A stretch of DNA of 63,858 nucleotides, counting the filler, from Reclinomonas americana ATCC 50394 (Eukaryota): NCBI GenBank assembly GCA_048213135.1. It is 7 parts of 3 records of this genome, joined end to end, with 100 filler letters (N's around TTAATTAATTAA, not from the genome) between each part and the next. Parts side by side here need not be neighbours in the genome. Positions count along the whole stretch, not along the records: positions 1 to 18,951 come from PS015215.1; positions 19,052 to 26,028 come from PS015215.1; positions 26,129 to 40,200 come from PS015215.1; positions 40,301 to 49,198 come from PS015215.1; positions 49,299 to 56,993 come from PS015218.1; 2 more parts are not named here. One strand, written 5' to 3'. The position numbers were made by a program, and so were the translations under genes. Each line of letters begins with the position of its first letter. Position 1 is the first letter of the stretch. Below, piece by piece: positions 6,001 to 57,094 of the stretch. The notes below the pieces were generated by a model. That model was not told where the DNA came from. It saw only the letters and a program-made list of their open reading frames with translations, and did no database searches.

Positions 6001-9000
6001 CAGCTGCTTGACGGAACGCTTGTGTCGTTGACCTGCGTCGTGCAGTCGGCAGTGGTGGCCAGCATCCACGTCGAATTGTCAATGTTGCAACCCTTGACAG
6101 TGACGGCAACCTGCGACGACAGCCCAGCCACAACAACGGGATTCGACACGAAAATCGGAGCCACTGCGCGATTGAAACAAATGAGACTTTTACACATCGC
6201 CGTGTGACTATCCAATCACACAAGACGCACCGCGATAGCCGAGGAAGGTGATGCTTGTCTGCATTCACATCGAAGTACATCAGTGAGCCGTGTCACAAAC
6301 GGGAAGGTAAAACGAGAGAGCGACTCACCGCCTGCGAGAAGAGAGCATTGTAGCTTTTCAACGATACACCGGTAAGGTTGTTCTGCGAGTACCGCAGCGT
6401 TGCCACTGCAAGAGGTCAGCGAGGACAAGGAAGCTCACGCACAGGAAAAGGTGCTACACACCACCGCCACTGGTAAACTCATACAATCCCTGAGTAGAAA
6501 ACAGGGCAAGACCGACAGAGGAGGACCCGACAGGAGTCAAGGCTGCCGCTGAGGTGGACGCGATCACGACCGGTACTGCATTTTGGGCAAGCAGAATGGT
6601 TGGCGCTCACACCTCTCAGAGTCAACAACACCGCGTAAATCACACAAACCAGCGACCGCGGGTCCAGTGATGATGGTTTGCGTGGACGTGGACACGTACA
6701 GGGTAGTGGGGCCACCCAGGTCCACAGCGATAGCCTTCGGTGATGTGATGCCAGTGAGGTATGTGGTGACAGCGCCGGTGCCTGCAACATAGACAGGATA
6801 AATGACGACTCAGTCAGCCAAGCAACTGGTCACTCGACAGAAGCGAAGGGCGAACCAGTGAGGGCGACTTGGCGAATCGAATTGTTGTTCGTATCCGCTA
6901 CGTACAGCGATGTGCCAGACACATCGAGACCGGAGGGGGAGTTGAACTGTGCACATACATTCACCTTGCTGAGCGAGCGACTGGATTAGACACTTGACGA
7001 GGATTTCACTCACCGTGGCACTCGTTCTCACAGCACTGTTAGTCGAACCAGCGACACCCGCCGTTCCGGCATAAGTTGTCACGAAGCCTGCATGAAGGGA
7101 GACAACAATTAGATTCATCATCCGCCGCCCACCAATGCGCGAACCGGGCAGCAGTCAGGCATACATACCATCAGCCGAAATCCGTCGAATCACATGAAAG
7201 CTCTGCATCACGACGTCGTGCAGTCAGTACACGATTCTCATAACAAAGAGAGACGAGCGTGCACGCGTACCGGCTCAGCCACAAACACGTTCTCTGAATA
7301 ATACGCAATGCCGCCAGTGGTGGCAGTCCAGCCGACTGAGGAGGTCACACCGGAGAGCGACGATGCACTTGTAGCGCGGGCTCCATTACCAGCAAGAGAT
7401 GTTACGTTGCCGGCGGGATCCACGCGACGAACGTACGACGCCTGCGCACATTCAACCGTGAGAAACAACGATGCGAGCACAATCATCACTGTCACTGCAC
7501 TGACCGATTGATCAACCACGAATATGCTCGACACACTCGGAGTATACAACACGGCAGAGATGCCCGAAAACGAGTTACCGGTAAAGGTTGGAGCACACAC
7601 AGCCGTATCTGCGCGAGTTGCAACACGCATTCACATTTGCGATGTCGACCCGACACACACNNNNNNNNNNNNNNNNNNNNACCAGCAACAATGGTGACGG
7701 TCACCGTGAGAACGAGAGCAGCATAAGTGCCGTGAGTAGCCTTGATACTCAGGGAGGTCGTGCCGGATGGGAGCGCACTGCCAACGACTACAGTCGAGCC
7801 AGTGACCTTGTATCCAGTCTGGAAACAGCGCGAAAGCAAGTGAGCACGTGTTGCTTTACAGTAGCACGGCATGCGCACACGAGCACACCGTCACAGTGAT
7901 GAGCGAGTAAGAATACACGTTGGCACCCGCAGCGGTGTTGCTGGGCGGTAATAGTGTCGATAGTGATCCGACCAGTGTGTCCTCACTGGAGCCCAGAGAC
8001 ACCACGTTGGGTGACAGGCTCACGGTAGTGGGTCCGAAGAACACTGGGTGGCAGATGAGCGGACATCAGAATTTCTGCGCGCGATCGTTTCAATTGCTTA
8101 CCATTGATGGTAAATGACACTGGTGTGGCGATCGATGAAGTACCGTCGCTCACAGAGACCGACACAACAAACTTCAAGTTGGTGGTGGAGGCGAGAGAGA
8201 GCGGAATCGTCGTCGTCGGTTTCCACTCCAGGTAGGCGTACGAGCACGGACTGGCCAACGATGTGAGCTGCAGGTAGGTCGTGTCGCCCGACGTGAACGT
8301 AAACGTGTGACAGTCCTTTGGATTTTCTGTCGGAGAACAAAAGGAATAAGATAGGGCGATTCGGTGCGACGGGAGACACGCGCGTCGCAACTGTCGATGG
8401 CGCGAAGCGTGCCAATCGGTCGCGACGCAGTGTACGGCGTGCTGACGGTGGTCCCGTCAGTAGCCGATGTCGCCGAGGCGACAAACAGGTTGAGGGTCTC
8501 CGCCGCGCACGCAGTCCCGGAACAACAGGTTCCAACGGCGCCGGAACACGCCAAGATGTCCGTGGGAGCATAGTTTGCTGCACATAAACGATGGTGTCAA
8601 CGCACAAGCACAGGGCGACAGCAGAACCAATGCGTACTGCGGGACGAAACTCTCATTGACGGTGCACGATGTGCTGAAATTCAGCGTTGCTGAACCAGAA
8701 TCGGTAGCGGTGACGCTGAGTACGTATGACCCTGACAAGGCCAGACTGCCTTTCTTGAACGAGAGGCCAGTGACACGGAATGCGTCGACAAGTGGCGTCA
8801 GAGTCACATCGCCAACCGCCGTGACAGAGTTGAGTGTCAGCGTGTTGCTCGCGCCACTGCCATCCGGATCTGCGCAGCAATACACAAAAATCCACATGAA
8901 CAATGCAACGCGTGGGCACCATCACCATTCAAACTCGCCCAACCGTACCGGTAATGGAAAACGAGCCAAGTACAGTGTCAGCAGTCGCCGACGGGTCATA

Positions 9001-12000
9001 CGATGTCGGACACGTAATGGCTGATGGCGCGCGATTCACCGCCACAGTGAGTGCTTGCGAGAACGTCAAGTTGCCGGTGCCACTATCTGTGGTCTGTAGC
9101 CGAATCCGAATCGAGGTGCTGGAGAACGAGTTTGCCAGAATTGTGGTTGCATTGTCGACCACCAGCGAGCTGTTGCTGATAGAGAACAAGCCGTTATCGT
9201 TGTCGCCGGTTCCCGACACCTTGGCGTACTGGAATGTCTGTGCCGGCAGATTGGGATCGGTGGAGGACAGCGTGCCAATGGTAGTACCAGCCGGCACACC
9301 AGCAGTCGGGATCAGAAGCACGTTACTGGCGGCGTAGGCGCCACTGAGCGTCACGCTGATGGCAGTCGGAGCACGATTCTCTGTGAGCGGGAACACGTGG
9401 TCAGCTGCAGTCGCTAGCCGAAGCAATAGATGCTCACGCAACGCTCCGTGAGTGTCAGCGACACTGTTCGCGCCAACGTTGAAAATTGAGTATCGGTCGC
9501 CGTGAGGCTGACGACAATGGTGTTTTTCAGTTGCGCAGACGTGGCCGCCAGCAGCAGCTGGTTGCTGCTGTTGACAGTGAAGAGCGACTTCAGGTCAAAG
9601 TTGTCGATCTGTCGCACCACCGAGCTAATCGACAGCGTATTCTGCCTGTACGCGGCGGCAGAATCACCATCTGCAGACCGAGATCAGCTAAGGCAGAGAG
9701 GCACACACAGAAAAAACATGGTGACGTACCAACAATGGCAAAGGTGCCTATGACTGCGCCCACAGTAGCCGTCGTGTCGTAGGTCGACGGTCCCGTGATA
9801 TCGGTGGCTGGATTGTTGAGTGGAAACGTAATGGTCGTGGTGGTGAACAGATTCGTCGGAGTGCCATCGTCGGTGGCGCGAACGCGGATGGTCAGCGACG
9901 TAACACCACTCGAGTATGCGATGCCACCGACAGCGGGAAACAGCGTGGTGCCGACAATGCGGAACTTGGCATTGTCCAACGCACCACCCACACTGTCGAG
10001 GGTAAAGGTCAGCGTCTGACCGACGTTGGCGTCCGATGCCGACAGCGTGCCGATACTGACTGCATCCGACCGCCCAGTACCCGTGATGGGCACCACGAGC
10101 GCACCCGAAGTCGCATAATCGGTGCCAGCTGTCGCTTGCAACACAATCGAGGTCGGCGCCACATTGGCTGCACATGACAGAATAGAGCGTGAATTCGAGT
10201 GAGCGAAATGTGGCGGCGACGAAAAAAAGCCAGAAGCTCTTGACTCAACTCTCCTTCAGCACAAACGTCTCCTCGTAGAACAGCGTACTGAGCTGTGAGT
10301 CTTCCGCGCGCACACGGACGGAGACCGTGCCGGTTGGAATCGCGGAGCCCAGCTTCAGCGTCAGTCCAGACAAGGTGAATGCATTGGTCAGTGCCACGCC
10401 ATTTTGTGTCACCGACACCAACGAGAGCGTGTTGGTCTTGTACGGTGCCGCATCGGCATCTGTTACAGTAACGAGGCAGAAGGGGGCGTCAATACAAGAA
10501 GCAGCGAACTGGAGCACAACAGTACCACGCAAACACACCAACAATCGCAAAGTCGGTGGTGACCGAGTCATTTTCCATGCCGTTTTGGTTGTAATTGGTG
10601 GGTCCGGTGATGTCGGTGGGGGCATTGTTCAGCGTCAACGTGTACGACAGATCTTGCGAAAGGCCGCCAGAGTCTGTCACGCGGAACTTGAGCGACAGTG
10701 TGCCGTATGTCGGAGCCGCAACACCAGATGCCGACACGCGGATCTTGTTGGTGGAGTACACCTCGAATAAGCTGTTACTCGTGCTGTTGTCCGTCGGCAG
10801 CGAGTATGTCAGCGTCTGCGCCGGCAGATTGGCGTCGTTGGCGCTTAGCGTGCCAATGTCGGTACCCGCGACGAGACCACTGGTCGGGATCGGCAAAACA
10901 GTTGTCGTTCCGGTATAGGGACTTGAGAGCGTAAAGGCGAGGCTTGTCGGCGCCACATTGACTGCAAGAATGTGATGATGATGATGATGAGGGGCGTGAG
11001 AAATGATGAGAATCGGATGAACGCAATTTGTTGACGAAACTTTCCGAGAGCGTGAACAACTTCGTGACAAACAGAGTCGACACTACCGAGTCGGTGGCCT
11101 TCACGCTGACGGTGACGTTGCCGGAGGGTGTGCTCGTCCCGAGTGTCAGCACGAAGGTGGAAGAATTCAGCGACAACACGTTGTTGCTGAGTGCGCTGCC
11201 GAGACTGTCGGTTACCGAGACGATGCTCATCGTGTTGCTGTTGTATGTCGTGTCGGCATCTGGTGATGATGAAGTGGCAAAGTGAGACGGCCTGTTGACA
11301 GAGCGTGTGTGCACAAAAGAAACAAAAAAAGCACGCACCGGTCACGGTGAATGTTCCAATGGCGGTGCTTGTGCCGGTTCGATCGTACGTGCTGTTCGAG
11401 AGTGTAATGTCGGTTGGAGCGTTATCAAACGCAATGGTGATGACCGAGTCGGTGGATGCTGGAGTGGAGCCAGAGTCGGTGGCGCGCACCAGGATGCTCA
11501 ACGACGCTGATTGACGCAGTGGCAGCGCCGTGGCCAGCACGAGACTTGTGCCGGTGATTGTGAACTTGGAGTTGTCTGTGGATCCTACGCCACTCTGAAG
11601 GCTGAATGATACCGTCTGGCCCGTGTTGACGTCTGTCGAGGAGAGTGTGCCGACGGTGATGCTGGCTGCCAGTCCGCTTGCAGGCACTGCCAGCACCAGA
11701 GGATTCGAGGTGGAGTATGCGTACGTTGCTGAGAGGGTGAGGGCCGGTGCCGTTGGCGGCGTGTTGACTGCACACACCGCTCTGTCAGACCTCGGAGAGG
11801 AGATGATGGAAGAGCAGAGGTCGCACGCAACATTCAGACACCGTGATACTTTCCTCGTACCAAATGCCCGGGAACGTTGCATCAGAGGCACGGATGGTGA
11901 GCACATATGTGCCCGAGGGCGATGACGTGCCGATGATGAGAGTTGACCCGTCTGATCCGGAAACATCAAAGAAGCCCGACTGCAGCACCGAGTTCTGACT

Positions 12001-15000
12001 CACGCCAGACAGCGTGTACGAGTTCGTCGCGTACGTAGCAGAGTCCGTGTCTAGTGACGGCAAAAACACATCGTAAGTCTCCGACTACTTGTGCTCGTGT
12101 CAGTGACACACACACACACACACCTGTGCTCGATATTGTGGCTACTGTGCTCCCGGTTGTCGGCGGCACAACGTACGCCGTCGTGGACAGGTTGATCTTG
12201 GTGGCCGGGCGGTTGAGAGTGATCTGTTTAAGGAATGCCGTGCTGGTCATCGCCGGTGAACTGTGTGTTCGTGTCTCGCGAGTGAGCGCGCTGTCCAAAC
12301 CATCCGCACACGCACGCACACACAAACACAAATACCCATTATCGGTGACCAAGATGCAAATATTGAGTGTGGACGTCGACGACACAGTACTCGGCGTGAT
12401 GGTGGATGCTGTCGACACGAGTCCGGTGGAAGAATTGATGGAGAACAAGTTGTTGTTGGAGGTACCACTGCAGCCGGAGCCGAGTGAAAAAGTCTTCGTC
12501 TGCCCACTGTTCACATCGGTTGCCGCCGCTGTGCACACGCTGGTGGAGGCGGCGACACCAGTCTTGAAAATGTTGAACGCTCCCGTGAAAGTCTCCGTGC
12601 AACCAGTAACCGTGGGAGCCTCGTTCTCCTCGGTGATGTTCAGGGCAAAGTCGGCCGTCAGCGATGTGAAATTCGTGTCCGTGGTGCGCAAGTTGATCGT
12701 GTAGGTGCCAGAACGCGTTCCCGTGCCAATGTACAGTTTTGAGCCGGAGATGGTGAACAGCGTGCTGCTGGCGGCACTACCGTCCAACTTGGTAATGAAA
12801 CTGACAGTGACGGCATTGGTGTTGTACGTTGCTCCCGTGTCATTGTCTGGCAATGCCGAGAAACGTCAGTAACGACGCACAGCTCACCGACGCATGGCAT
12901 CGCACTCACCGGTGACAGTAATATCGCCGACTTCGGTTCCCTGGGTGGCCGACACCTTGTAGGTCGTCGGAATGACGACAGCTGTTGGCGGATTGTTGAT
13001 TGGCAAACTGTATGTGTACGTGGTCGACAGCGAGCCATCCGAAGCGCTGACCACAATGTACAGCGGACTCTGAAGGTAGCCCGTCAGCGGCGTATTGTTC
13101 GCCGGGTACAAGCTGCCGGCTTGGTCCATGCCGAANNNNNNNNNNNNNNNNNNNNTTTGCTGTTGCTGTCCGTGACGCCACTGGCGGTGGTGAACGAGAA
13201 GGTGATGGTCTGACCAGTGTTGTACTCGGACGCCGAAAAGGTGCCGATCAGTGACGTCTGCCCGATAAGCGCGTAGGCACCCTTGGTGACCAGGCTGGTG
13301 TCGGAGGCGGTGAAGGCGACATTGTACGGCGCGTAGTTCACTGAGTGCGAGCAACGAAAACAAGCAAGTGAGCAGGCGAATGGTGACCATCAATCAGTGC
13401 GCGACGCACACTCGGTCAGAGTAAATGCCTTGGAGAACGTCAGCGTGTTGAATGTCGAACTGGTGGCCTTGAGCGTCACCGACACAGTTCCGCTAATCAC
13501 CGTGGTGCCGAGTGAGAGCGTGAGACCCGACACGGAAAACGCGTTGGTCAGTGCCTGATTGTTGGAGTCGGTGACCGAGTCCACCGTGATGGTGTTCCCG
13601 TTGAGCGGCGAGGGGTCGCCGTCTGCGCAGAGTGAGCGAGTAATCGACGGGAATATGCAAGCAAGAGAGGCGACTGGGACGCACCCGTCACTGTGATGGT
13701 AGCCACCGTGAGTGTCAGTCGGCGAATATCGTACGTTGAAGCCGACAGGGTCAAATTCGTGGCAGCATTGTCGAGTGCAATCGATACAGATGTCGTGGAC
13801 GTGGTGGATCCTCCACTGTGACGGCGGTGAGCTTCTTCTACACATCGAAAAGTAGACGACGTAAATAGCGCTGCTGGGTGTAACCAACGCAACTTTCCGT
13901 CGCTGACAGAAAACTTAAAGGTCAGCGGTCCGACTTTTGGCGGGAGCAATGTTGCCTTCAGCGTGACGTTGCCGGTGGACGAGTCGACGTTGAACAAGGA
14001 GCTGCTGTCGGAACCACTGCTGACAATGCTGTAGGAGAGTGTTTGTGCCGGTGTGTTGGGATCGGTGGCCGACAACTGCACCAGCACGGTGCTGGTGGGA
14101 ATTCCCGTTGCCGTCAACGGGATGGCGTTGTTGGCGCCGGCCAGATTCGTCTCCACGTTCGTGTACGTCAGGCCGGTCGGGGCCTCGTTGACTGTGCGTC
14201 AACAACCCGTAAGTCCTTCTCAACCGGGATGCACACGTTCATCACCCACGCGCAGCGTGCGCGCACGCAACTCTCGGTCAGCGTGAACGTCTGATCAAAG
14301 TACAACGAAGAGTAGCTGGAGTCGGCGGCGCGAATCGTCACCGACACGTTGCCGCTGATGCTGGCGGCCGAGCCGCGCACCAAAGAGTAGGTGCTACCGA
14401 CCTTGGAGACGGTGAATGCGTTGGTCACGGACTGCGAGTTTACCGTCGGTACGTTGATTTTGAGGGAGGCGGACGAGTCGGGATCTGCGGCGGTGGGGTG
14501 GAGTGAGGGGAAGAGAGGGACGAAGAGAAGAGAAAAGGGAGGGGGAGAAGGGAGGGCGAGAGAGAAAACACGCACACACATATACACACAAGCGCCGCAC
14601 CAGTGATAGTAATGGTGGCCACAGATGCACCCGAAGCCGATGTGCGGCTGTAGGTGGTGGTGGAGAGCGTGATTGCCGAGGGTGGATTATTCAGCAAGAT
14701 CGTTGTCGTGAGAGTAGAGCTCGTCAGCGCCGGCGTGCTGCGAAAGTGTGAGAGGTAAGCCGTGCGATACATGCACACGTGCCGGCAACACTCGACGAGA
14801 GACGCAACCCGCTGTCTTGCGCGTAGGTCTTGACAACGAGGCTGCCCACGACAGGCCCCAGCAGCGTGTCGGAGGGGTACAGTCCGGTGCCGCTGATGGC
14901 GAAGAGGAAATTGTTGCCTTGCCCATCGGCCAGCACGTACGTAATCGTCTGCGTCGTATTCGCGTCGGTGGCCGAGTAGGTGCCAAGGAGAGTCGAGCTG

Positions 15001-15171
15001 GGGACGCCGCCGGTCACCAACGGCAGGAAGCCGTAATCCTTCAGTGGCTGGTACACGGCCGTGAATGTCAGGCCAGTGGGCGCAACATTGGCTGGGGAGC
15101 ACAACAGAGTGAGAAAAGCAAGATGATGACATGCATGCATTTCTCCATCTCATTCATCTCTCTCTCTCTCT

Positions 15172-15245
<74 letters not shown>

Positions 15246-16211: not shown

Positions 16212-16291
<80 letters not shown>

Positions 16292-17755: not shown

Positions 17756-18944
17756 ATGCGCTCGTTCATTGTCCTCGCTGCCCTCTTCTTCCTCGGCCTC
17801 GTTGCCGTGTGCGCTGCTTCCTCAGCTGAGGAGTCAGGTGAGCAGTGTGACGTGCACGCGCGCCAGACACACCCGCACACCCCGCCCCACCCCTCCCCAC
17901 TCGCTGACCCCACTCGTGTGTGTCTTTATTTCCTTGTCGTCGATGCCTGCAGAGTATGAACTCACCGATGAAGGTGCGTGCTCCCGACCGTTACTTTGCC
18001 TCCTGCATTCAAAAAGGCACTCACCTGTGTGTGTCTCTCACCCACAGAGTTCGCCAACTTGATGCGATGTTGCGACGCGCTGCATGAACACACACACGCC
18101 TCGTGAAATCACCTCGTCGTCTCACCTCGTCGTCGTTTGCGTACATACAGTTGCCCAGTTCGACTCCTTTGCGGAGGACTGTTGCGTCTTTCCCCCACTT
18201 TTCCCGCCACACACAAACACGCTATGCATCCATGCATCCAACCCCACTCACATTACTTTGTGTGCCGCGCAGCATACGATGACACCGAGTCTCAGCTGCA
18301 AGCTCAGGAGGCCGCCAACAAGCAAAGCGCTGCCCTGCTGCTGTCCTTCAACCTGTCGACTGAGAAGTGCTGCGGTGCTCGTGGCTCTGTCGGCTACTGG
18401 TTCCAGAAGCTGCTGGACGCCCGCGCGTTGCGTCTCCATTTGCCGACCGTGCTCGTCGGAAGTTTGTGTCCTCACTCTCTGTGCTCTCCATGCAGCGCTC
18501 TGATCGCCGCCACCCGCAACCTGGTGGCCGACAACAAGGCCATTGATGCTCTGAACGCTGCCGTGGCCTCGCAGACCGCCCAGTGCCAGCAGTACCCGTA
18601 CGACACTGTTTCGTTCGACTTGCTCCATTTTTCTATCCAGTTTGCTCGCCTACCTTTGACTTACGATTATTCCCCACCTTCTCGTGTCGTGCAGACCTGC
18701 GCTGCTAAGCTGGCCGCCATCAAGAACGACCTGGCTGCCGCCACCGCCAAGCGCGATGCCGACCAGAAGTCGATCAATGAGTTGCGCCACGGAAATGAGA
18801 TGATATCACCCCATCTCTGTCTCTGCCTTGCTGACTTTGGTGGTGTGAACGCGCGCACACAGCATCAACGGCCAGATTGGCTCGATCACTGGCGACCTGA
18901 ACTACTGGACAGGCCTGGTGCAGACGCAATGCATCAGCAAGTAA
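17756..18944 (+). CDS. Small secreted protein (~195 aa, 8 exons): signal peptide, acidic N-terminal region, helical body with Cys residues
   Basis: MRSFIVLAALFFLGLVAVCAASS signal peptide. Spliced product SAEESEYELTDEEFANLMRFAQFDSFAEDSYDDTESQLQAQEAANKQ...EKCCGARG...TAQCQQYPYDTTCAAKLAAIKNDL...YWTGLVQTQCISK*, all introns GT-AG with consistent phases. Confidence 0.75.
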
Positions 18945-19051
18945 TTCTGCGNNNNNNNNNNNNNNNNNNNNNNNNNNNNNNNNNNNNNNNNNNNNTTAAT
19001 TAATTAANNNNNNNNNNNNNNNNNNNNNNNNNNNNNNNNNNNNNNNNNNNN

Positions 19052-19173
<122 letters not shown>

Positions 19174-19177
19174 ACAG

Positions 19178-19385
19178 CGGCCTCGTCTCGCGATGGCACA
19201 CGGTACTTTGTGATCACACTGACCTGCTTGAACTCACAATGGACATCAAGAAGGGTCAGCAAATACTCCCTCACACAAAGAGAGAAGACGCGGATGTCAC
19301 TCACTCTCACTCTCTCTCTCTCACTCCCACACACACACAGCGATATAGCGAGTTTGAGGCGCTGCTTGAGAAACTTAAGGTTTGT

Positions 19386-19421
<36 letters not shown>

Positions 19422-22400
19422 ATGTGTGTGTGTGTATGTGTGTGTGTGTGAGTGAGTGTGTGTGTATCGGTTGGTCTCTGACGATTCATCACACTCACTC
19501 TTGGTACTCTCTCTCTCTCTCCCTCCCTCTCTCTCTCTCCCTCTCAGGCACAACACGCGGCATTTTTGGCCGACCATCCACCACAGAACGACGCTCAACT
19601 GGTGAGACTGCTTTTTTCCTCCCACTTTCCTCCCTTTTTTCTCATTGTGGAGTAGTCACCGGAGAGTCGACGACTGATGGCCGAGGCGCGCGTGTTTGCC
19701 TTCCCGCCCTTCCCACCCAAGACGTGGTTTACTCCGTCGGAGGCCGAGGTGCAAGAGCGACGTGCCAAGTTCGATGCGCTGCTGCGTGCGGTGCAGACGC
19801 AGCCGCACTTGGCCAACAGCCCCGATTTGATGGTGTTTCTCGAAGTCAATGTTGCGTGCTTGGTGGTGGTGAGGCTCAGAGCGCGCGGTGAGGAATGTGT
19901 GATGATGGGCTGGTGCAGGAGAGTCCGGTGGCGCATCTGTTGCGCATTGCACCGAGTCCGTTCCCGGAGGAGGAACAAATTCGTCGCAAGAAAACGTGAG
20001 CGCATTTTCCATCTCGATCTCTCTGTGGAACGTCACCACCTTACGTGCGCACGCTGGTAGGATTGTGCGCCGTCGGCTGCAAAAGTCGCTGGCTGAGTTG
20101 CAGAATGGCACGCTGATGGCGTCGTCGATCATGGCGGGAGGGTCGTCGATGAGCATGTCGCAGAGCGTCATGTTTCCGGTTGATGCGCAGGAGCGCTTTG
20201 CCGCCGCGTTTATGAAGACCGAAAAAGTGAGTGGCGTTGCGATTCCTCGCCATCGCAAGCGTGGCTGACTTGGTGTGCACCGAACAGCTCAAGTCGAGGC
20301 TGCGCCGCCTCCAAAAACGCGGCGATAGTTTCCTCTGTGAATTGGTCGCCTTCAGTCCCGCACCACCAGCAGGCATGTTGTTTAATGTCGCGCTGTTCCT
20401 CACGTTGTTTTTTTTGGCTGACACACGCATGCAGAGGAAATCAACAAGACGCGTCACTTGGTGCGGCGCATCGACCCGTCGCAGCACAGTTTTGTGATCT
20501 CGGTGTACGACGGATGCATTCTGTGTCGCGTCTACCACCCGCAGCGAGTGGACATGCTGGCCGATCGCGCGGTGATTCAGCACGTGTTGGACACTCCCAA
20601 CGAGATTGTCACGCTCCCGTCGGGCACTGGCGAGCCGTCAGCATCGGCTCTCATGATCTCCACCATTCGTGTCACCAGCGGCGGCCGACAGACTGCTGGT
20701 GCGACGGCAACGACGGCAGCGGCGGGTGCTCACCCTCTTGCCGACGATGATTGGCCGTTTGACGATGAGGACGAGGACGACGAGGACGATGGCAAGGGTG
20801 GTGGACCATCGCGGAGCACCCTAATGTCGTCGGATTTCGAGCCAGTGGAGGATTCGACCGAGGTCACACCGACTCCTGCTACTGCTGCTGCTGGTGCTGC
20901 TGCTGATGGAACCGGTGCTGCGTCGGCGGCGGCGAGCAAGGCAAACGACGATGACGACGAGTGGCAAGTGGTGGACGAGGCGGCCGTGGTGATGGTACCG
21001 AGCGCGCCGGCGAGTTTGGCCACCGTGCCGCTCGATCAGTCGGCGGTGGTGCAGACGGGCACCTATTCGATTCACCTCAATCCGCACCCGTCACGAGGTA
21101 CGATGACGATTGCTTTTATCTTGCCTTCTTGTGTCATGTGCGTCGCTGATGCACGATGCGCAGCGGTGGCTCGACCGGGTGAAGAGGCTCTCTCGCCGCG
21201 ACGCGTGCGAGCTGTTTTCGACTTTAACCGGTGTCCCATGCCCAAGTTCTGGTTGTTCCTGGACCAGTTGTTGAATGTGAGCAAGGAGCGATGTGAGCTG
21301 CGCGCACAGAGGAGAGGCGATGTGCCGGGGGGAACGTCGCGAGTGTCCATTGAGTGGATTCCGCTGTCGCTGCCGCCGCTCTCGCAAGTCCTCGCCCCGC
21401 TCTCCGACGGCTCCGTGACGCACTCGAGTTGCGTTCTGCCGGTCGTGCAGATATAGTCGTTTTGTGCGCTTACCGCCTATGATACACGAAGTCGTGTTGG
21501 TGACCGACGACCATCCGATCGACACGGTTGGTCATCTTGTCTTCCCCTCTTTGCTCTGAAGTCAACTCATGTGTGCCTTGTAGTGGATCATGACGCTGGA
21601 GACGCTGTCCGGAGGCGAGCTAGTCGACACCATGCGCTTCATGCGTGAAGAGCAGCGGGATCGCTACTGGAATGGTGAGTTGTTTTGCCCCCTTCCTGTT
21701 TCGTGCCATCGTCGCTCCTCATCCGTCATCGCGGTTCAGTGATCGACACGTTGCGCGACATGGAGGGTAAGCACGTCTGCGTTGCACCACTTCTGATGTC
21801 GTGACTACTCACAATTGTGTGTGCAGCATTGCGGAGCTCCAAGTGCAACCTGGAGAGCGCGCGTCACCAAAGCCTCCTCGAGGACCTCTTTGAGGCGGTG
21901 TTCCCGGACGAATTGTTGACGTCGATGTACAATCCCAAGTGGAAGGTTCTGGGTTTCCAGGTACGTCGCGCCATATCGTGCATGAAGAAGGAACAGGATT
22001 AGCTCCGCACCAACACCATGTGATTTCGTGTTGCAGAATGCCAACGTGGCACGCGATTTTGAGACGTGCGGCGTCCTTGGTCTGCACCAGCTGGTGAAAT
22101 TCGTGAAGCGGTACCCGGAGTTGACGCAGCAGATGATCAAGCAGCACCATCGGTACAGCATTGTGCAAGCCAGCACTCATGTTGCGTCTCGCAGTTGGAA
22201 CGCTGCATGTGGCCAGCTGGCTGACAACGTAAATACTGTCGCAGATCACGGTGCTCCTCTGCAACTTGGTCGGCATCTCGGCTGGTGAGTCTCGCGCGCT
22301 TTCTTTCCCTTTTCGCATCGTGCCCATTTCCTGCTTGTCCATGTGCACAGAAATCTACCAGTACGAGTCGGGCGCACGGTTGCGCGACGGCAGCTTCAGC

Positions 22401-23378: not shown

Positions 23379-23542
23379 ATTTCTCTCTCTTTCGGCCTCT
23401 CTCAAGTGCAGTAGTAAACAAGTTCAACATAGTCTTTGGAGCAAAGCATCCCGGATGTGAGCTTACCTGCTTGACTGCAATCGGTATTGCATTGGCCGAT
23501 GTTCGGGTTTAGTAATTGTGCGTGTGTTAGAGAGGGAGACTC

Positions 23543-24009: not shown

Positions 24010-24040
<31 letters not shown>

Positions 24041-25961: not shown

Positions 25962-26028
<67 letters not shown>

Positions 26029-32000: not shown

Positions 32001-35000
32001 GTCGGTCGTTGTGTGCTGACGGCGCCACTTTTGGTAGGGCTTTTTACTTTTTGGAACCACGAGACCCGGCAAAGGTCGAGCAGCTCATTTACATTCAGTG
32101 CACGCTGTTGGAGCGCATTGCTGCTGTCGGGGAGCGTGGTCAGCAGCGCCTGTTGGACGCCGGACTCGGTGCGTAAGATTGTGACAGGGGCACGAAAAAG
32201 AAATCTACGGCCATTGATGACTAAACGACGTGTGTCTTGTGCCTGCAGTGTTGTATGTGCGTTCGGAATGACTACGGCAAAGTGAGGTGGGATAGCGTCT
32301 AACTGGGGGTGTGCATTGCAGTGTGTGCGTGGCATACAGCAGACCACGTACAACACCGAACTCTTGCGCATGATTCAGCTGGCCAGTGCATTGCTGGCGG
32401 GTGGTTATCAGCCGTCGCAGAATGGGTTTCTGCGAGCTATGCAGGAGCGTGACGGGCTGCTGCTGAAGCTTCGCGACAGACTTCGTGCGGCCGCGCAGTC
32501 CATGGAAGACCAGCGGGTGCTCGACAATGCTCGACAAGAGAGCGTTGCTGGCGACGATGACGAGTTGCGTGCGATGTATACGCTTGTGCTGGTGTATGTT
32601 CGCGGCTCTAATTCATGTGACCTACGAAATAAAACAGCACACAAAACGCCGAATCACCCGCGGATCTGAATGCAGACGTGGACTTGTTCCTCATTCGCGA
32701 TTTCCAGACCAACATGGATACGGCTACGTCTGTGTTGCGGTTCCTCCAACTCCTGTGTGAGGGGCACAACAGTTGTGTCGATCCCTGCTGCCGCTGGAAA
32801 CCTAATATAATCATTCACTCATCATTTTTCTTGGCAACCGCAGCCGAAGTGCAGTCATTCCTGCGCGTGCAGCCGACGGCTCGCCGCAGTGTGGACATGC
32901 TGGAGGTATGTGGGGGAGATGTGCAGAAAGCTGGGTGACGTGCGCGATGACCATGCACCGTGCAGGAACTGGCGAATGTGGCAGCGCTGTTCGAGTTGCA
33001 CATGTCGGCGGGCAATCTGCCGCTATTTGTGCAACTCTTTGACACGGTGGCCGAGATGATGCAGGGTCCACATCAAGAGAACCAAGTTACGAGTTTTGTG
33101 TAGAGGTCCATGACGCGCCTACTCTGAATTTCCCATTTTCCGATAGGTGGCGGCGCTGACCAGCGGCCTTCCGTTCCTGGCCAATCGTGTCATCACCACG
33201 TTGGTAAAGGACTGGCTGGCTCCACCATTTGTTGCTGTGCAGCAAGCGGCAATTAACATGCTGTTTGCGATGCTCGAGGGGCCGACAGCGCACACCGAGA
33301 ACGCTGTCCGTCTCCTGGAGTCTCTCGATGTCGGGCGCATCAGTTGAGCGTGGCTGCGATTCATTTCTCTGCTCTGTCACGGAATGCTTACTGTCGTGTC
33401 GGCGCGATTGTTGCAGTGTCGCATGCGGTGCGCGTGCATCAGCTGTACTCGATGGCGCGCCCGGGCAGTCGCAAGAAGCGCCGTGGCATCACGCCAATGC
33501 CGTCGATCATGGAACTCTCAGTGCAACGCAACCACGCGGAAGAGTTGGAGGCTCTCGGTATCAGCTTGTATTCGTTGCTTCGACGGATGGAAGATGTGCG
33601 ACCAAGACTCCTGGATGAGGTGCGTGCAAAGGCGCAGTTTTGCCGACAGTCGCTTCATTTACTCACCCTGCAAGCAGTTGTGCAAGGCCGCGGGAAGTGA
33701 GCTCACGGGACCTCGACCTGGAGACCTCTCCCTGCAGCTGTTCCGCGACCGTACCGGTTCTGTGGAAGTGTTGCGCGGCGGCAACATTGAGAAGGTGAAG
33801 CGCGTGCTCGTGTGTATCGGAGGAAGAGCGTATGTTGTTGTTGCCTCACTCGTGTTGCGCACGCTGTGCAGCTGTACTACCCCATCCCGCGCAATGTGCA
33901 CTTGCTGGCTGATAATGTGTATGAGGTTACGTCACGAAGTGTTCCGTTGTTGCTGTCGGTTTGTCTGTGTTGCTCACATTCTGCTCTGCAGCACTGGCAA
34001 ACGACAGTCAATCGCGAGTCGCCGACACGAAAGGCCGAGGGCCTGGTCAATCAAGTGGGAGCCTTTTATGATGAGCTCGCTCACGCGGTATGCTCGGGAA
34101 AGCAAAGCCCGTCCACGAGTTGCTGTGCAATCGCAAGTCTCATACGTACTGTGCCGACAGGCGTCATTGGACTCGTCGCGCATTTTCCGTCCATTACGGC
34201 GGTATTACCTGCCGGGGCACAATCTGCTCATCGTAATGGGCATCATCCTCAACCTGCTGACGTTGTTTGGCTTCCAAGTGGAGACGTACGACGATTCCGG
34301 GACAGTAGTGTTGCGTCGCGGTATTGGGGAGACCACGCGGTGCGGATGGTGGTAGGAGCATTGACACTTGTCAACAGAAACAGCAAGTGGCGCGACTCGG
34401 CCCTGTATGCAGTGGTGTTAGCCCTGGCGATCACGCAGCTCACGATTACAGTCATCATGACCGTGGTGTACAGTTGCGTGGGCGACGGCTGTGGCCAGTG
34501 CTTTTTAAGGCGGCGGTGGTGACACTTCTTTGTCCTTTTTCTCGTAGTCGTTTACGAAGGCGTGTTGAGATGGCGATACGTAGTACGGATGCGAAAGCCG
34601 TCACTGCCGCTGGTGAGTGTGCGTGCACGCCTTTGACGAAATTCAATAATAGCTGACGAGCTTCGTGTTTCAGCGATACTGGGAGACGGTGCCCCGCAAC
34701 GCCAAGTACTACCTCAAGTACACGGTCTGCAGCTGCCCTCGGCAATCGCATTGTATCATTGTTGACACCACTGGCCTTCATCGCAGGGCATTCTCCTGTC
34801 GCAGCCGACATTTTACTTCCGACTGGCGTACATTGTGTCGTTGCTGCTGGGCATTACTGTGCATCCAGCATTTTGGTCATTTTTGTTGTTTGTTGCGTTT
34901 TTGTTTTGTTTCGCCAAGCACCACCACCATGTCTGTGTCCTTCACGTTTGCGACTCACTGGCGACGACGCGTGCAGGAAGTGGTGCGGTGGAGCAGTGTG

Positions 35001-36244
35001 CTTCTCAACGGTGCGCCTCTGCCCTGTGGGTTGTTGTCGTGCGCGTCCCGCTCCTCACGCGTTTCCATCTGCTGCATGCAGTGCTGCGATCGGTCACCTC
35101 CAATGCGCGCTCGCTGATCACGACGAGCCTGTTCGGCCTCATGCTCATCTACGTCTACGCACTTCTGTGGTTCATTTTCGAGAACGACTACATGCAGTTG
35201 GCCACCGGCAATCCAGACGACCCGACGAATCATCTCTGCGACACGCTCTTCTCCTGCTTCATAGCTCTGTTGGACTTTGGATTGCGCTCATCGTCGTTCT
35301 GGGAGGGCCTGTTTGCCGCCAACTTTAATGCGTTTTCGATCGTTCTGCGCCTGTCGTTCTTCATCTTCATCATTGTCATTGTGTTGAACATGATCTTTGG
35401 GTGCGTCGAGATTCAACTGTGTGTGTGTGTATGCATGTGAATCTTGGTGATGACTAACTGGTGGTGTGGCTGCCTGTTGTGTGCAGTCAAATTCTCGACA
35501 CGTTTTCGCAACTGAGAGCGGAGCGTGATGCAGTTCTCAACGACCGTCGCAACGTGTGCTTCATCTGTGGTCTGGAGCGCGGACTGTTTGATCGCGTCGG
35601 CAAAGGTTTGTGCGGGGCGGTGAAGGTGTGCCAGAGTGCGTCTACAACAGGGTGCCCATGCCGCGCGTGCAGGTTTCGCAAATCATCTGCGACACGAACA
35701 CAGCATTCATGGCTATGTTTTCTTTTTGATGTACGTGGCCACCAAGTCTCGTGATGAACTGACAGGTGTGTATGTATGGTGTGCTGTGTTGACAGTGGAG
35801 ATGTATTTGCTCACCTGCCACACATCCAGGTCCGGAGCAGGAGATTGCGGACAAGGTGAGACGCATTTGTGTGGCGGTGGAATGTAGAGGGTGAAATGCC
35901 TGACTTGTGCTGGTGGTTGTCGTCGTCGCAGTTTGCCAGCGGAGACATTAGCTTTATGCCACTGCAACGGGCGCTGGTACGTGACGATGCGTGTGCGTGT
36001 CGGGTTCGGTTTCGGTTTCATGGATCAGCGTGTTTTGTCGTGTTTGCAGGTGTTTGAGCAGATTCGTGTCGGCGACGTGGCCACTGACAAGGGCACTGGC
36101 GCCGGTGCCGTGTCGAAGACACTGCGCCGACGACCTGGCGCCGGCAGCGATGACAAGAAGAAGGAGCGAGCGGACAATGACGACGACGATGACGGCGGCG
36201 GCGACGACGACTACGACGACGATGCCGACGACCGGGAGAACTGA
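23543..36244 (+). CDS. ITPR: Inositol 1,4,5-trisphosphate receptor / ryanodine receptor family Ca2+ release channel (very intron-rich; crosses the gap at 26029-26128)
   Basis: Collinear IP3R motifs: FLNYGD...HPPPSFADSCFVVCPLQPVTAQ (suppressor domain); YGDIVMLRHLRSEGYI...RAEGDKVRIGDPLVL (MIR); YHIELLLLLAATASGENDDAEVLCQDLLPLEE (RIH); LRFLQLLCEGHN..VQSFLRVQ and MMQGPHQENQ (RIH-associated); HPAFWSFLLFEVV..LLNVLRSVTSNARSL (TM region); FFIFIIVIVLNMIFGQILDTFSQLR...CFICGLER...HEHSIHGYVFF...ELTGPEQ (S6 and linker). Confidence 0.93.
25963..26141. repeat. (GT)n microsatellite flanking a gap inside an IP3R intron
   Basis: GT repeats on both sides of the gap. Confidence 0.9.
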
Positions 36245-36395
36245 GACATCGAGTGGGGCGCTCTGTGACAGTCACATGGCATCCACTATTCGTCGGAGCT
36301 GTCGCGTTGTTGTCTGTCCGCCTCTCTCTCACACACGTTCAGGAATGTCAGCCAGCCAGCAGCAATATAAACAACCTAATTATTCTTTTTCTACA

Positions 36396-52200: not shown

Positions 52201-55200
52201 AGTAAGTGGATACGTGGGACTCATTTGTCGTGACCATTGCAGCGAACGTTAATCCAACTGCGCCGACACTGTCCTCCTCAACGTACACGCCACCCCTTGC
52301 GCTGAACGGAGTGATCGGCACCCTTGCGTCGACGGACCCCAACACGGGTCAGTCACTGACGTACACGATCACTGGTGGCACGGACATGGCATCCTTCAAT
52401 ATCAGTGGCACGAGTTTGCAATCGAATGTGGCTGGCCTCTCTGGCAACAATCTGCAAGTGATTGTGCAAGTGAGTGATGGGGCAGGTGGAGCGGCAAGCA
52501 CGACGTTCACCATCAACGAAGGTATGTTTTCTTTGAGCCATTTTACGCAGCGAGTATTGTTTACGTCCTCACCATTTCGCAGCTAATGTTGCGCCGAGTG
52601 CTCCAACGCTGTCCTCCTCGACCTACACTCCGCCGCGCGTTCTCAACGGCACGATTGGCACGCTGTCGTCCACGGACCCCAACACTGGCCAGACGCTGAC
52701 TTACACGATCACGGGCGGCACGAATCAAGCATCGTTCAACATCAGTGGCACGAGTTTGCGATCGAATGTGGCTGGGTTGACGGGTAATAACCTTCAAGTC
52801 ATCGTGCAAGTGAGTGATGGAGCAGGTGGCACGGCGAGCACGACGTTCACCATCAGCGAAGGTGAGCATGCCTTCGAGTGCTTCATACTGTGCTTATCTG
52901 TCTCAGTCACTGACGCCGCTCTGCACAGCCAACGTGGTCCCCACTGCTCCGGCTCTGTCATCAACCACGTACACCCCACCACTCGCTTTGAATGGTGTGA
53001 TTGGCACCATGTCATCGACAGACCCGAACACGGGCCAGACACTCGTGTTTTCCATTGTTGGCGGCACCAACTCTGCCTCGTTCAACATCAGCGGCACCAA
53101 CCTGCGATCAAATGTGGCAGGCCTCACTGGCAACAGCCTGCAAGTGATTGTGCAAGTGAGCGACGGTGCCGGTGGCGTGAACACGACAACGTTCAACATA
53201 TCTGAAGGTAAGGCGATGCATTTATTCACTCTTACTCCAGTGCATCACACGCGTTTATGAGCACAGTTAATGTGGTACCCACTGCGCCGACACTCTCCAC
53301 CAACTTGTATGTGGCGCCGCTCGCGCTGAACGGAGTAATTGGCACTCTGGCGTCAACCGATGTCAACACCGGTCAGACACTGACCTTCTCCATCACCGGC
53401 GGCACCAACTCGGCATCGTTCAACATCAGCGGCACGAACCTGCGCTCCAGTGTGTCTGGCCTCACCGGCAACGGACTTCAAGTGATTGTAACTGTCAGCG
53501 ACGGAGCTGGTGGAACTCGCTCGTCTACATTCAACATTTCGGAAGGTTTGCGTGATGCAGATGATCATTGATGGGATCGTCATTGGTGCGCTGACTCTTT
53601 CCTTGCAGCCAACATGAGCCCTACGGTCCCCGTCTTGTCGACAACGTTGTATACGCCGCCGCGTGCTCTGAATGGCGTGATTGGCACTCTCTCCGCAACA
53701 CCTGCCATGGCTGGTGACACGCTCACATTCTCGATCACTGGTGGCGCCGACCAAGCATCCTTCAATATTAGTGGCACGGACCTGCGTTCCAACGTCGCGG
53801 GCCTTGTCGGGAACAACTTGCAGGTTGAGATCACTGTTACGGCTGGCACTGGTGGCACGAACTCGTTCGTATTCGACATTGATGAGCGTTGCGTCTGTTG
53901 ATCCTGTTCCTTATTTGTTTATCTGCGTTGTTGTTCACCGCCGTGGCTGCAGTCAACGTGATACCAACCGCACCAACGCTGTCGTCGTCGACATATGTGC
54001 CGCCACTGGCACTTGGCGGCGGCATTGGCATGCTGTCGTCGACGGACCCAAACTCGGGACAGTCGTTGACTTACTACGTCTCTGGCGGCACCGACCAGTC
54101 ACTGTTTTCAGTCAGTGGTGGGAACAGCCTCGTGACAGCAGTGTCGAATCTGACGGGCAACAACCTTCAAGTGATCGTCACAGTCGACGATGGAGCAGGC
54201 GGCACCAACTCAGCGACATTCCTCATCAACGAAGGTTGGACTGGCTCGCACTGCGCTCGTCTCTCTTGCCCTCACTGACCCATCGCTCTTGTCTCTTGCG
54301 TAGCCAATGTGAATCCGACGGCGCCCACTCTGTCAAGCAGCACTTACACCCCGCCACTCGCCATAAATGGCATCATTGGCACTCTCGCCTCGACAGACGC
54401 CAACACGGGCCAGACCCTGACGTACACCATCACGGGCGGCACCAGCATGGGATCGTTCAACATCAGCAGCAGCAGCTTGCGGTCGAATGTTGCTGGTCTC
54501 ACCGGCAACAGCCTGCAAGTGATTGTGCAAGTGAGCGATGGAGCAGGTGGCACCAACACGTCCACGTTCACCATCAGCGAAGGTCAGTGTGGTGGCTTGT
54601 TCTTTTGCTTCTTCCCTTTTGCACCCGCTCATTCGCACACTCTGTTGCCTTTGTGACAGCCAATGTTGTGCCAGCGCCACCGACTCTGTCCACCTCGACG
54701 TACACTCCACCAGTGGCCATGAACGGCGTTGTCGGCACACTGTCGTCCACTGATCCCAACACTGGCCAGACACTGACGTACACGATTGTCGGTGGCACGA
54801 ATCAGGCATCTTTCAACATCAGCGGCACCGACTTGCGATCCAATGTGGCTGGTCTGAGTGGCAACGGACTGCAGGTGATTGTGCAAGTGAGCGATGGAGC
54901 TGGTGGCATCAACACGTCTACGTTCACCATCAGCGAAGGTTTGTATCGCTCCTTTCTGTTATAAGTCGCGTGGCTGACTTAGTGTCTGTGGTGCGCAGCC
55001 AATGTGCCTCCGTCTGCTCCGACGATTTCGTCGACTGCGTACAACCCACCGCTGGCCCTCAACGACGTTATCGGCGTCTTGTCCTCGACAGACCCAAACA
55101 CTGGGCAGGTTTTGACGTTCAGCATTGTGGGCGGTGCGGATCAAGCCTCGTTCAACATCAGCGGGTCCAATCTTCGCTCCGACGTTGCCGGCCTCTCCGG

Positions 55201-56993
55201 CTCCAACTTGGTGGTCATTGTGCAAGTTAGCGACGGTACTGGTGGCACAAACACCGCAACATTTACGATCGGCAGCTGTTGCGTTGCATTCCACTCTCTC
55301 TTGAATCGCCTGGTTGTTGCGCCTGCCTGACTTTGCTCCGTGAAACACAGCGAACTTACCGCCGTCTGTGCCCACGTTGTCGACCGTGCTTTACGTTCCT
55401 CCTCTGGCGCTCAACGGCGTCATTGGCGCGTTGTCGGCCACGGACCCAAACGTCGGTCAGACGCTGACGTTCAGCATTCTGGGAGGAGCCGACTCGGCGC
55501 TCTTCAACATCAGTGGCTCAGACTTGCGATCCAATGTGGCTGGTCTCGTCGGCAACAACTTGGAGGTAATTGTCGAAGTCAGCGATGGATTCGGCGGACT
55601 GACAAATGCCAGATTCCTGATCAGCGAAGGTTGGTGGCACGCCGCCGCTCTCGTGTCTCGCTTGCACAAGTCGTGCATGCTGTTGCTCATTCTTCTCCCG
55701 CACACAGTCAACGTGCCACCCACCGCACCCATCCTCTCGTCCTCGTCGTACATTCCCCCACTGGCCGCGAATGGAGTCATTGGCATCCTGTCATCCACCG
55801 ACGTCAACAGCGGGCAGTCGTTGACGTTTACGATCACTGGTGGTGCGCATCAGGTACTGTTCAACCTCAGTGGTTCCAGCCTCCGAAGCAGTGTTGCCGG
55901 ACTCACCGGCAACAGTCTGTCGGTGGAGGTCACTGTGTCGGATGGCGCCGGTGGCACCAACGTCAGCACATTCATCATTGGCGAAGGTCTGATGCACCCT
56001 GCTCTCTGATTGCACGTCCCGTTTTTGTTTGCTGATTTGTTTGTCTGTCGCGACCGCACAGCCAACGTGAATCCCACTGCGCCGGTGCTGTCTGCGCTCT
56101 CTTTCACACCGCTGCTTCCGCTCAACGGCGTCATCGGCGCCCTGTCCTCCACAGACCCCAATACGGGTCAAGCGTTGACGTTCACCATTACCGGAGGCGT
56201 CAACGCAAGCTCGTTTGTCATTGTCGCCTCCGACTTGCGCTCCAATGTGGCGGGACTGAGTGGGATTAATTTGCAAGTGGTGGTGACCGTCAGTGATGGT
56301 GCAGGTGGCACCTCCAGCAGCACATTTACCATTACTGAAGGTACGGTTTCGTGTTTCCAGAATGCATTAACGCTGGTACTAATGAGGTGCTGCTGTACAC
56401 AGTCAATGTGCCACCATCTGCTCCATCTCTGTCACCCTCGACGTACGCGCCGCCTCTGGCACTCAACGGTGTCATTGGCACCCTCTCGTCATCGGATCCG
56501 AATACGGGACAGACGCTCTCGTATTCCATCATCGGCGGCGGCAATCAGGCATCGTTCAGCATCAGCGGCACAAGTCTGCGGTCGAATGTTGCCGGCTTGA
56601 CAGGAAACAGTCTGCAGGTGACGGTGCAAGTCAGCGATGGCGCCGGAGGTATCAACAGTACGACGTTCTCGATCAGCGAGAGTTGCGTGATGGAAGTCTG
56701 TGGCAAGACGCGATGTCACTCTCGCTGAATGCTTGTTCCTTGATTGCAGGCAATGTGCCCCCGAGTGCACCAACACTCTCGACTACTCTGTATGCGCCAC
56801 CACTGGCCTTGGGCGGCACAATCGGCACACTGGCTGCCACTGATGCGAATTCTGCGCAGACACTTGTTTACGCAGTCACCGGTGGCACAGATCAGTCCGA
56901 CTTTTACGTTGTTGGCAACAGCTTGCTCTCCAATGTCAATGGACTCAGCGGCAACGACCTTCAAGTGGAGCTCACTGTGTCGGACGGAGCCGG
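49299..56993 (+). CDS. Tandem array of 23 cadherin-like domains, one ~279-nt exon each with phase-1 introns; both ends lost in gaps
   Basis: Unit ANVVPTAPTLSSSTYTPPLASNGVIGTLSSTDPNTGQTLTYTITGGTNSASFNISGTSLRSNVAGLTGNNLQVIVQVSDGAGGTASTTFTISE repeated every ~335-360 bp. Confidence 0.88.
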
Positions 56994-57094
56994 NNNNNNN
57001 NNNNNNNNNNNNNNNNNNNNNNNNNNNNNNNNNNNNNTTAATTAATTAANNNNNNNNNNNNNNNNNNNNNNNNNNNNNNNNNNNNNNNNNNNNA

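Follow-up and report, generated by a model that had tools for sequence, protein, structure and literature searches.

The '+1 shifted register' of U1 at 5' splice sites was described by Roca and Krainer in 2009 (cited here through PMC4856993) and provides an experimental precedent in human cells for the mechanism proposed here. GTGCGTG donors, which were termed atypical, occur in Ostreococcus and other Mamiellales (PMC2483917). According to the text of bioRxiv 10.1101/2022.06.08.495308, the U1 of Entamoeba carries ACAAAC and that of Mastigamoeba balamuthi carries ACGUAC, together with GUGCGC donors; both a standard and a modified U1 have been reported for Physarum, and Thecamonas trahens and the Mamiellales have a standard U1 despite donors with C at +4. 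In a survey from 2024, many introns of Thecamonas, Emiliania, Symbiodinium, and Aureococcus had low scores and were termed 'non-canonical', and its text leaves annotation error possible (PMC11347168). Here we analyzed the 5' splice sites (donors) in a stretch of 63,858 nucleotides (nt), filler included, from Reclinomonas americana ATCC 50394, which consists of seven parts from three records with 100 filler letters at each join and is referred to as the window. It is nuclear DNA with about 55% G+C, dense in genes and with numerous short introns. Scanning metagenomes yielded a single locus, at 38% identity. We found that it contains a real second class of donors, which is word-specific and has no preference for G at the last exon base (−1). 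The strict word of this class, GTTGCGT, seems from the predicted genes to start about one intron in six, almost only after exon ends other than G. It had been noted in a sequence-only reading of this DNA that such donors look like GTGCGT with an extra T, and this is borne out, since the word is the local optimum GTGCGT plus one T.

Direct evidence came from junctions that could be fixed without a splice model. At 28 such junctions, which include array copies that are not mutually independent, GTTGCGT was present at all five non-G ends and at none of the 23 G ends. The plus-strand array of 23 cadherin-like exons (49301-56994), each of 92 codons, contains 22 homologous phase-1 introns, with 19 exons ending in G and three in another base. 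The donors after G (GTCAGT, GTGTGT, GTATGT, GTTTGT, GTTGGT, etc.) have G at +5 in 18 of 19 cases, the exception being GTATTC at 52184, and none of them is GTTGCGT, whereas GTTGCGT follows each of the exons ending in C (53887), T (55277), and A (56681). This internal control, with its 19 G ends and its three non-G ends, had been put forward in the sequence-only reading and was reproduced exactly. The three introns concerned, all on the plus strand and in phase 1, are GAGC|GTTGCGTC (53888..53952, 65 nt), AGCT|GTTGCGTT (55278..55350, 73 nt), and GAGA|GTTGCGTG (56682..56749, 68 nt). They have nothing in common beyond the word. Their exon ends are set by paralogy among the 23 exons, all three are also in the set predicted by the gene finder described below, and the second is obligatory, without an in-frame alternative GT within 30 nt.

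The gene for a mitochondrial-type Hsp70 (mtHsp70; 45.4-48.4 kb, minus strand) was located by tblastn with three eukaryotic mtHsp70 proteins, and its product is itself absent from the protein collection, where the best identity is 83%. Homology to these proteins fixes six of its junctions, of which two have GTTGCGT, after T and after C, and the other four follow G. The first GTTGCGT intron, ACT|GTTGCGTG (47586..47654, 69 nt, phase 0), separates ..IVAFT from DDGQRLVG.. and was placed by tblastn and by the sequence itself; it contains a stop codon, and its removal matches the spacing of the homologues. The second, GCC|GTTGCGTT (47028..47104, 77 nt), separates ..NEPTAA from ALAYGLD.., with a change of frame across the intron. 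The donors after G are GCG|GTGCGT at 47502, GAG|GTTGGG at 46826, AGG|GTTTGT at 45828, and AAG|GTTTTGTG of the intron 46330..46401, all on the minus strand; the last of these begins GTTTTG, so that it has T at +3 and G at +6 and is counted below with the second class, although it follows G and is not of the GCG type. Two further introns of this gene probably belong to the class. In the C-terminal part, GCT|GTTGCGTT (45460..45525, minus, 66 nt) is predicted, and being in frame and stop-free it is not proven; CGA|GTTGCGTT (48052..48320, minus, 269 nt) is the probable first intron, read by hand after the ATG at 48397 and a presequence of 26 codons, and lies outside the predicted set.

For the rest of the window, introns were predicted with a gene finder based on dynamic programming, which scored codons by log-odds and acceptors with a matrix and allowed GT..AG introns of 45-200 nt. 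Its donor model is a single matrix with independent positions, which cannot encode covariation and rewards G at −1 for every donor. With this matrix, 29 of 29 fixed introns were recovered and 165 introns were predicted in the window; without any donor model, 18 of the 29 were recovered in the last round, with in-frame GTs a few codons further downstream taken in error. In the IP3-receptor region, the predictions are weak. Donor statistics were calculated on the 164 predicted donors free of N. We defined class A by G at +5 and class B by T at +3, a base other than G at +5, and G at +6, and donors of neither kind were counted as other. The commonest hexamers among the 165 introns were GTGCGT and GTTGCG, with 22 each.

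Class B makes up 30 of the 164 donors (18%). The exon ends in G before 76 of the 106 class A donors and before only three of the 30 class B donors (30 and 27 non-G ends, respectively; Fisher p = 9.6e-10); for the 28 other donors, the numbers are 9 G and 19 non-G. The difference persisted in every subset that we considered (G/non-G): introns of 120 nt or less (class A 72/23, class B 3/26, p = 2.5e-10), the array excluded (58/30 and 3/24, p = 4e-7), both cadherin-like genes excluded (50/29 and 2/16, p = 6e-5), and the run without a donor model (49/20 and 3/23, p = 3e-7). Of the 44 obligatory introns that have no alternative GT in frame within 30 nt, 37 fall in classes A and B, with 23/6 for class A and 0/8 for class B (p = 8e-5). 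The difference was also seen when only the two commonest words were compared, with 11 G and 11 non-G ends before GTGCGT and 1 G and 21 non-G ends before GTTGCG (p = 0.0015). The three class B donors after G are those at 14808 (GTTGCGTC), 33926 (GTTACG, in frame and open), and 46401 (GTTTTG).

These numbers bear on a possible artefact, namely that the junctions are off by one or more bases or that the extra T was introduced into GTGCGT donors during assembly. The window contains 21 N runs (filler at part joins among them) and comes from a draft assembly, most of the junctions are predicted, and five of the 18 donors listed in the sequence-only reading were not confirmed. However, five junctions are fixed by homology or paralogy, and random overcalls of T should strike G|GTGCGT as often as H|GTGCGT (H, not G), in contrast to the 11/11 and 1/21 ratios observed. 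A slide of one base would in turn require G as the first exon base, yet another base stands at two of the three array acceptors and at most of the predicted ones. We therefore consider an artefact very improbable.

The word of the class is strict. T at +3 and G at +6 are present in 30 of 30 class B donors by definition, and the remaining positions are also restricted: 22 of the 30 begin with GTTGCG, 23 have G at +4, 28 have C at +5, and 26 have T at +7. By comparison, class A is nearly unconstrained at +3 and +4 after G and is narrowed to GTG[C/T]GT after another base. The donors thus form a hierarchy, in which almost any GTNNG works when G is present at −1, and GTGCGT/GTGTGT or GTTGCGT is needed when it is not. 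A shifted copy of class A would be much broader than class B. The hexamer GTTGCG has 86 occurrences when both strands of the window are counted. On the sense strand of the predicted genes, GTTGCGT occurs 26 times, comprising 19 predicted donors, three intronic sites, and four exonic sites, and it occurs four times on the antisense strand; the sense-strand sites that are not predicted donors may include missed ones, such as 34892. One-base neighbours of the word are rarely donors (GTGGCGT 1/9, GTCGCGT 0/7, GTTGCGC 2/16, GTTGCGA 1/7, GTTGCGG 0/6, GTTGTGT 0/9, and GTTGCCT 0/6). Every position in the word counts. A displacement of GTGCGT by one base predicts T at +3, G at +6, and T at +7, and sites with other bases at these positions are rarely donors.

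The rarity of G before class B donors has to be read against its background. The fraction of G is 0.15 before GTT, 0.10 before GTTGC, and 0.06 before sense-strand GTTGCG sites that are not donors. The 10% of class B donors with G at −1 equals this background, so that the effect is the absence of an enrichment of G and not its active avoidance. In class A, G at −1 is enriched 3.85-fold; with the same enrichment and a background of 0.10, about half of the class B donors would be expected after G, and three of 30 were observed. The covariation with a non-G exon end proposed in the sequence-only reading therefore stands as a difference between the classes (3/30 and 76/106), although G is rare before GTT in any case and there is no sign that it is shunned. 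GGTT is depleted on both strands throughout the window, with a G fraction of 0.15 before GTT vs 0.27 before GTG.

We suggest that class B consists of ordinary major-type GT-AG introns with a second strict donor word, H|GTTGCGT, read in a +1 shifted register, a reading of these sequences to which we give about an even chance. The register and its reader are inferred. The contacts normally made on G(−1), T(+2), and GCGT(+3 to +6) would move to G(+1), T(+3), and GCGT(+4 to +7); U1 would bind one base deeper in the intron with a mismatch opposite U(+2), and cleavage would stay before the sole GU. The exon end would be free to be any base because the reader of the last G of the exon is taken by the first G of the intron, and the rest of the word would have to be nearly perfect because one contact is lost. 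T at +3 would be obligatory because it replaces the canonical U at +2 opposite A7 of U1, and the need for G at +6 and T at +7 would be explained likewise. At the −1 position, a model without the shift is about 9 nats worse (n = 18, both cadherin-like genes excluded).

The missing preference for G at −1 also separates the shifted alignment from a bulged one, in which U1 and U6 would pair with GU and GCGU in their usual places and one U of +2/+3 would be looped out. The word is literally GT + T + GCGT, and one-base bulges at +2/+3 are among the registers of human 5' splice sites (68 predicted sites in Table 3 of PMC4856993). In a bulge, however, C9 of U1 is free and the pair −1G:C9 would still be gained, which should favor G at −1 as in ordinary donors, and class B has it in only three of 30. 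Moreover, T at +3 is near-obligatory (GTGGCGT 1/9, GTCGCGT 0/7), though a looped-out base need not be U. These points favor the shifted alignment, and we regard the bulge as rather improbable. The sequence-only reading had left open a bulged or a shifted alignment: it is the shifted one, GT-TNNGT, that fits the lack of preference at −1, and the notion of a shift does not extend to all ordinary donors, as 22 of the 30 class B donors are GTTGCG and 28 have C at +5.

Several results weigh against the shifted register, at least in a simple form. Pairing was evaluated with the standard U1 11-mer from Table 2 of PMC4856993 by duplex energies (ViennaRNA) in any register, with 600 decoy GTs from the same genes, under energy rules that ignore pseudouridines and U1 proteins. 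The area under the curve (AUC) against the decoys was 0.95 for class A donors after G, 0.60 for class A donors after non-G, and 0.31 for class B, whose mean energy was −1.2 kcal/mol vs −2.3 kcal/mol for the decoys. In the shifted register, standard U1 makes isolated pairs only, and C at +5 (28/30), which standard U1 does not explain, faces a U1 uridine, as does C at +4 of GTGCGT. On the exon side, the shift predicts A at −1 and C/A at −2. With the minus-strand cadherin-like gene included, the preferences looked displaced by one base (A at −1, A or C at −2, and A at −3; −107.8 vs −117.9 nats), and without both cadherin-like genes, shift (−74.9 nats) and background (−76.0 nats; n = 18) are indistinguishable. 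Furthermore, most class B junctions are gene-finder predictions within a single 64-kb window, six of the 30 introns keep the frame and contain no stop codon, and for 21 of them an alternative GT lies in frame within 30 nt. Two ideas were dropped. The apparent exon-side shift was withdrawn as a product of the paralogous GAN-N| boundary codons in the minus-strand cadherin-like gene, and pairing of the donor word with an intronic CGCAAC was found in none of the 30 introns.

The pairing proposed in the sequence-only reading is not supported with the standard U1 5' end, since no register made these donors better than decoy GTs. That reading also mentioned variant U1/U6 small nuclear RNAs (snRNAs) as a possibility: beside standard U1, there may be a second U1, or a U1-like RNA, complementary to GUUGCGU, for example, with A for C opposite U(+2) or with a full ACGCAAC. 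One spliceosome would then be served by two recognition systems, the second of which would read about one sixth of the introns and relieve exon ends of the need for G. Near-perfect pairing would account for a word that is strict over seven positions and for the scarcity of donors among its neighbours, and standard U1 pairs worse with the word than with decoys. When U1 positions 5 and 6 were varied (16 variants), G at position 5 was common to the three variants that discriminated best, and the best overall is the Mastigamoeba-type ACGUAC (AUC 0.83); however, none of the 16 raises class B above an AUC of 0.67. U1 5' ends co-evolve with donors in Entamoeba and Mastigamoeba, according to the text of bioRxiv 10.1101/2022.06.08.495308, but in the same text Thecamonas and the Mamiellales combine +4C donors with a single standard U1, so that an unusual U1 does not follow from an unusual consensus. 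The Rfam scan, which covered the window only, found no snRNA gene there, and Rfam and transfer RNA scans of the window gave no Rfam family or transfer RNA of any kind. Both a second U1 and the dual recognition that would follow from it are, in our view, possible but unlikely.

Apart from the donor, the class B introns do not differ from ordinary ones, which bears on whether they are a separate family, either minor-spliceosome-like or mobile 'introner' copies that carry their own 5' end. A share of 30 in 164 is big enough for such a family, and U12-type introns likewise have a strict extended donor without a preference for G at −1, although their donor motif has no likeness to GTTGCGT. C at −3 of the acceptor was found in 25 of 29 class B and 89 of 95 class A introns, the pyrimidine shares are 0.63 and 0.62, a branch-like YTVAY is present in 26 of 29 and 77 of 95, and the median lengths are equal. 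GT..AG in all 30 class B introns follows from the construction of the search, and the five introns fixed by homology or paralogy do have it. TCCTT in the last 45 nt was found in five of 29 class B vs six of 95 class A introns, and there is no common word. Among the 30 introns, blastn-short gave no non-self match, and 9-mers are shared equally often within class B (16 of 435 pairs) and among ordinary introns (170 of 4753 pairs). As class B introns have the lengths, acceptors, pyrimidines, and branch-like words of class A and no likeness to one another, they belong neither to a minor-spliceosome class nor to a family of introners, and we consider a separate family scarcely credible. Taken together, the observation made in the sequence-only reading is confirmed, and more strongly than that reading could show, and its interpretation is partly supported.

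The other predicted class B introns lie on both strands. On the minus strand, the first is ACT|GTTGCGTT (4210..4280, 71 nt), which is obligatory. It is followed by those of the second cadherin-like gene (about 8-15 kb, minus), a gene identified by a sub-threshold PF00028 match and by Atlas leads to cadherin-like clusters. They are ACA|GTTGCGAC (8327..8391, 65 nt), AGA|GTTTCGTC (8578..8650, 73 nt), AGC|GTTGCGTG (9381..9442, 62 nt), AGA|GTTGAGTC (10168..10249, 82 nt, also named in the sequence-only reading), AAA|GTTTCGTC (10962..11040, 79 nt), AAT|GTTGCGTG (11768..11831, 64 nt), AAA|GTTGCGTT (13816..13893, 78 nt, in frame and open), AGA|GTTGCGTG (14192..14271, 80 nt), and CGG|GTTGCGTC (14738..14808, 71 nt), the last being the sole GTTGCG donor with G at −1. 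Those at 8578..8650, 9381..9442, and 14192..14271 are obligatory with no alternative GT. The domain-boundary introns of this gene (8327-14808), which are in phase 1 after GAN plus one base, mostly have class B donors (GAGA|, GACA|, GAGC|, GAAA|, GAAT|), whereas in the plus-strand array most of the homologous boundaries read GAAG| and have ordinary donors, a second paralogous contrast.

On the plus strand, four predicted class B introns lie close together, namely ACT|GTTGCGTC (18181..18272, 92 nt, obligatory with no alternative GT), CGC|GTTGCGTC (18427..18495, 69 nt) and ACT|GTTTCGTT (18608..18694, 87 nt), both in frame and open, and TGA|GTTGCGCC (18781..18862, 82 nt). The donor AAT|GTTGCGTG (19851..19956) has a doubtful acceptor (GAG). 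PX, ELMO, and IP3-receptor domains are encoded at 19-36 kb on this strand. The ELMO-domain gene has the predicted intron CAT|GTTGCGTC (22181..22244, 64 nt) and the IP3-receptor gene has TTA|GTTACGTC (29967..30040, 74 nt), with several alternative GTs. Further predicted introns are GAG|GTTACGTC (33926..33991, 66 nt, in frame and open), which follows G, AGT|GTTGCGTC (34310..34377, 68 nt), ACA|GTTGCGTG (34473..34547, 75 nt), and TTT|GTTTCGCC (34908..35081, 174 nt), a rival of the donor at 34892 with the same acceptor and another frame. TTC|GTTGCGTC (43502..43577, 76 nt) and CCA|GTTGCGCC (44371..44434, 64 nt) are both obligatory with no alternative GT. For the IP3-receptor gene, a full HMMER search gave 316 homologues at E ≤0.001, of which the best 150 were listed; in tblastn, the 45 listed proteins of more than 2000 residues aligned only to a few exons, where identity was 25-48% apart from a stretch of 20 residues with 65%, which is too weak to fix junctions.

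Of the 18 donors listed in the sequence-only reading, all have the GTTGCG, GTTACG, or GTTGAG strings at their coordinates and a base other than G in front. The support by reading frame claimed for them is more mixed. Twelve are in the predicted set, and the donor at 48320 fits the hand-read start codon and presequence; those at 27085, 33343, 34892, and 42321 are compatible in frame but ambiguous, and for 24000 no acceptor was found. An octamer, GTGGCTGA, is common to three predicted donors, at 1029 (minus), 20261 (plus), and 60362 (plus), and fits neither class; these may be mispredictions or a third minor word.

Some other features of the window were observed. In the presequence region of mtHsp70 (48041-48051, minus), there is a likely exon of 11 bases (TCGTTTGCCAG), with the 269-nt first intron on one side and an intron of 100 nt on the other. 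A single GT-AG intron cannot close the conserved GIDLG|TTNS junction of the same gene (47754-47907, minus); the junction closes exactly with two, 47907-47839 (69 nt, G|GTGAGT) and 47837-47754 (84 nt, A|GTGCGT), which flank a one-base exon, A at 47838 (GGA, Gly). Alternatively, the G run may contain an assembly error of one base. On the plus strand, long open frames run antisense to Hsp70 at 45514-47768 and match Pfam PF10712, 'NAD-specific glutamate dehydrogenase' (E 2e-79). It was through this match that the Hsp70 gene was first noticed. The family is known to model the antisense strand of Hsp70 genes, and the match does not represent a gene. The mtHsp70 start (ATG at 48397, minus) is head to head with that of a GTPase gene at about 48460 (plus), whose G1 motif is of the EF-Tu type, with some 60-100 bases between them. 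Kinase and PH domain fragments are encoded at 40.7-42 kb (minus). At 41300-42200, long CT/GA dinucleotide repeats lie among protein kinase, PH domain, and small-GTPase-like exon fragments of that strand, and the gene finder made no gene call. Paired runs of 44 N with 12 bases between them occur at six sites (18952-19051, 26029-26128, 40201-40300, 49199-49298, 56994-57093, and 59687-59786), which are the filler joins of the window.

If transcripts confirm these introns, R. americana would make routine use, in about 18% of predicted introns, of a mode of splice-site recognition that is a rarity in humans, with a few dozen to a few thousand sites. The system would, if real, offer a natural case in which the place of U1 binding is uncoupled from the bond that is cut and in which U6 handles a donor longer by one base. 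Class B also shows a route by which a genome can free the last base of its exons from the requirement for G. Gene finders and intron classifiers with a single matrix will misplace or reject such introns, and this may underlie some of the 'non-canonical' intron fractions in protists. A scorer of this type would class GTTGCGT donors with the low-scoring 'non-canonical' introns described in the text of PMC11347168. Among the matches listed in a full-text literature search, which did not extend to supplements, GTTGCG(T) or GUUGCG was not found as a donor class, occurring in primers and unrelated RNAs only.

The ordinary class of this genome resembles donors known from other lineages. It peaks at GTGCGT (22/165) and is dominated by G at +3 with C or T at +4 after a non-G exon end, like the donors of the Mamiellales, Thecamonas, and Mastigamoeba. 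For these lineages, a second word longer by one base is not mentioned in the text of PMC2483917 or bioRxiv 10.1101/2022.06.08.495308, in the latter of which, supplements aside, 'register' and 'GUUGCG' have 0 occurrences. With U12-type introns, class B shares a strict extended word and an exon end that is not read; it differs in the word itself, in having no distinct branch-site word, and in its ordinary 3' ends. The human +2/+3 bulge registers (Roca et al. 2012; Tan et al. 2016; both through PMC4856993) likewise have one extra base between GU and the +5G/+6U block. In the human bulge, predicted for 68 sites, the −1G:C9 pair stays useful, whereas here G at −1 brings no benefit. The validated non-canonical registers together account for 1.5% of human 5' splice sites according to PMC4856993, compared with 18% of the predicted donors here. 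The closest likeness is to the human +1 shifted register of the same source, in which GU is followed by U, the downstream G-U block comes one base later, U1 contacts are displaced by one, and the cut is at GU, as would be the case for class B. The human shifted word is based on AAGUAU and that of R. americana on GCGU, which makes very few pairs with standard U1, and the R. americana class is known from sequence alone.

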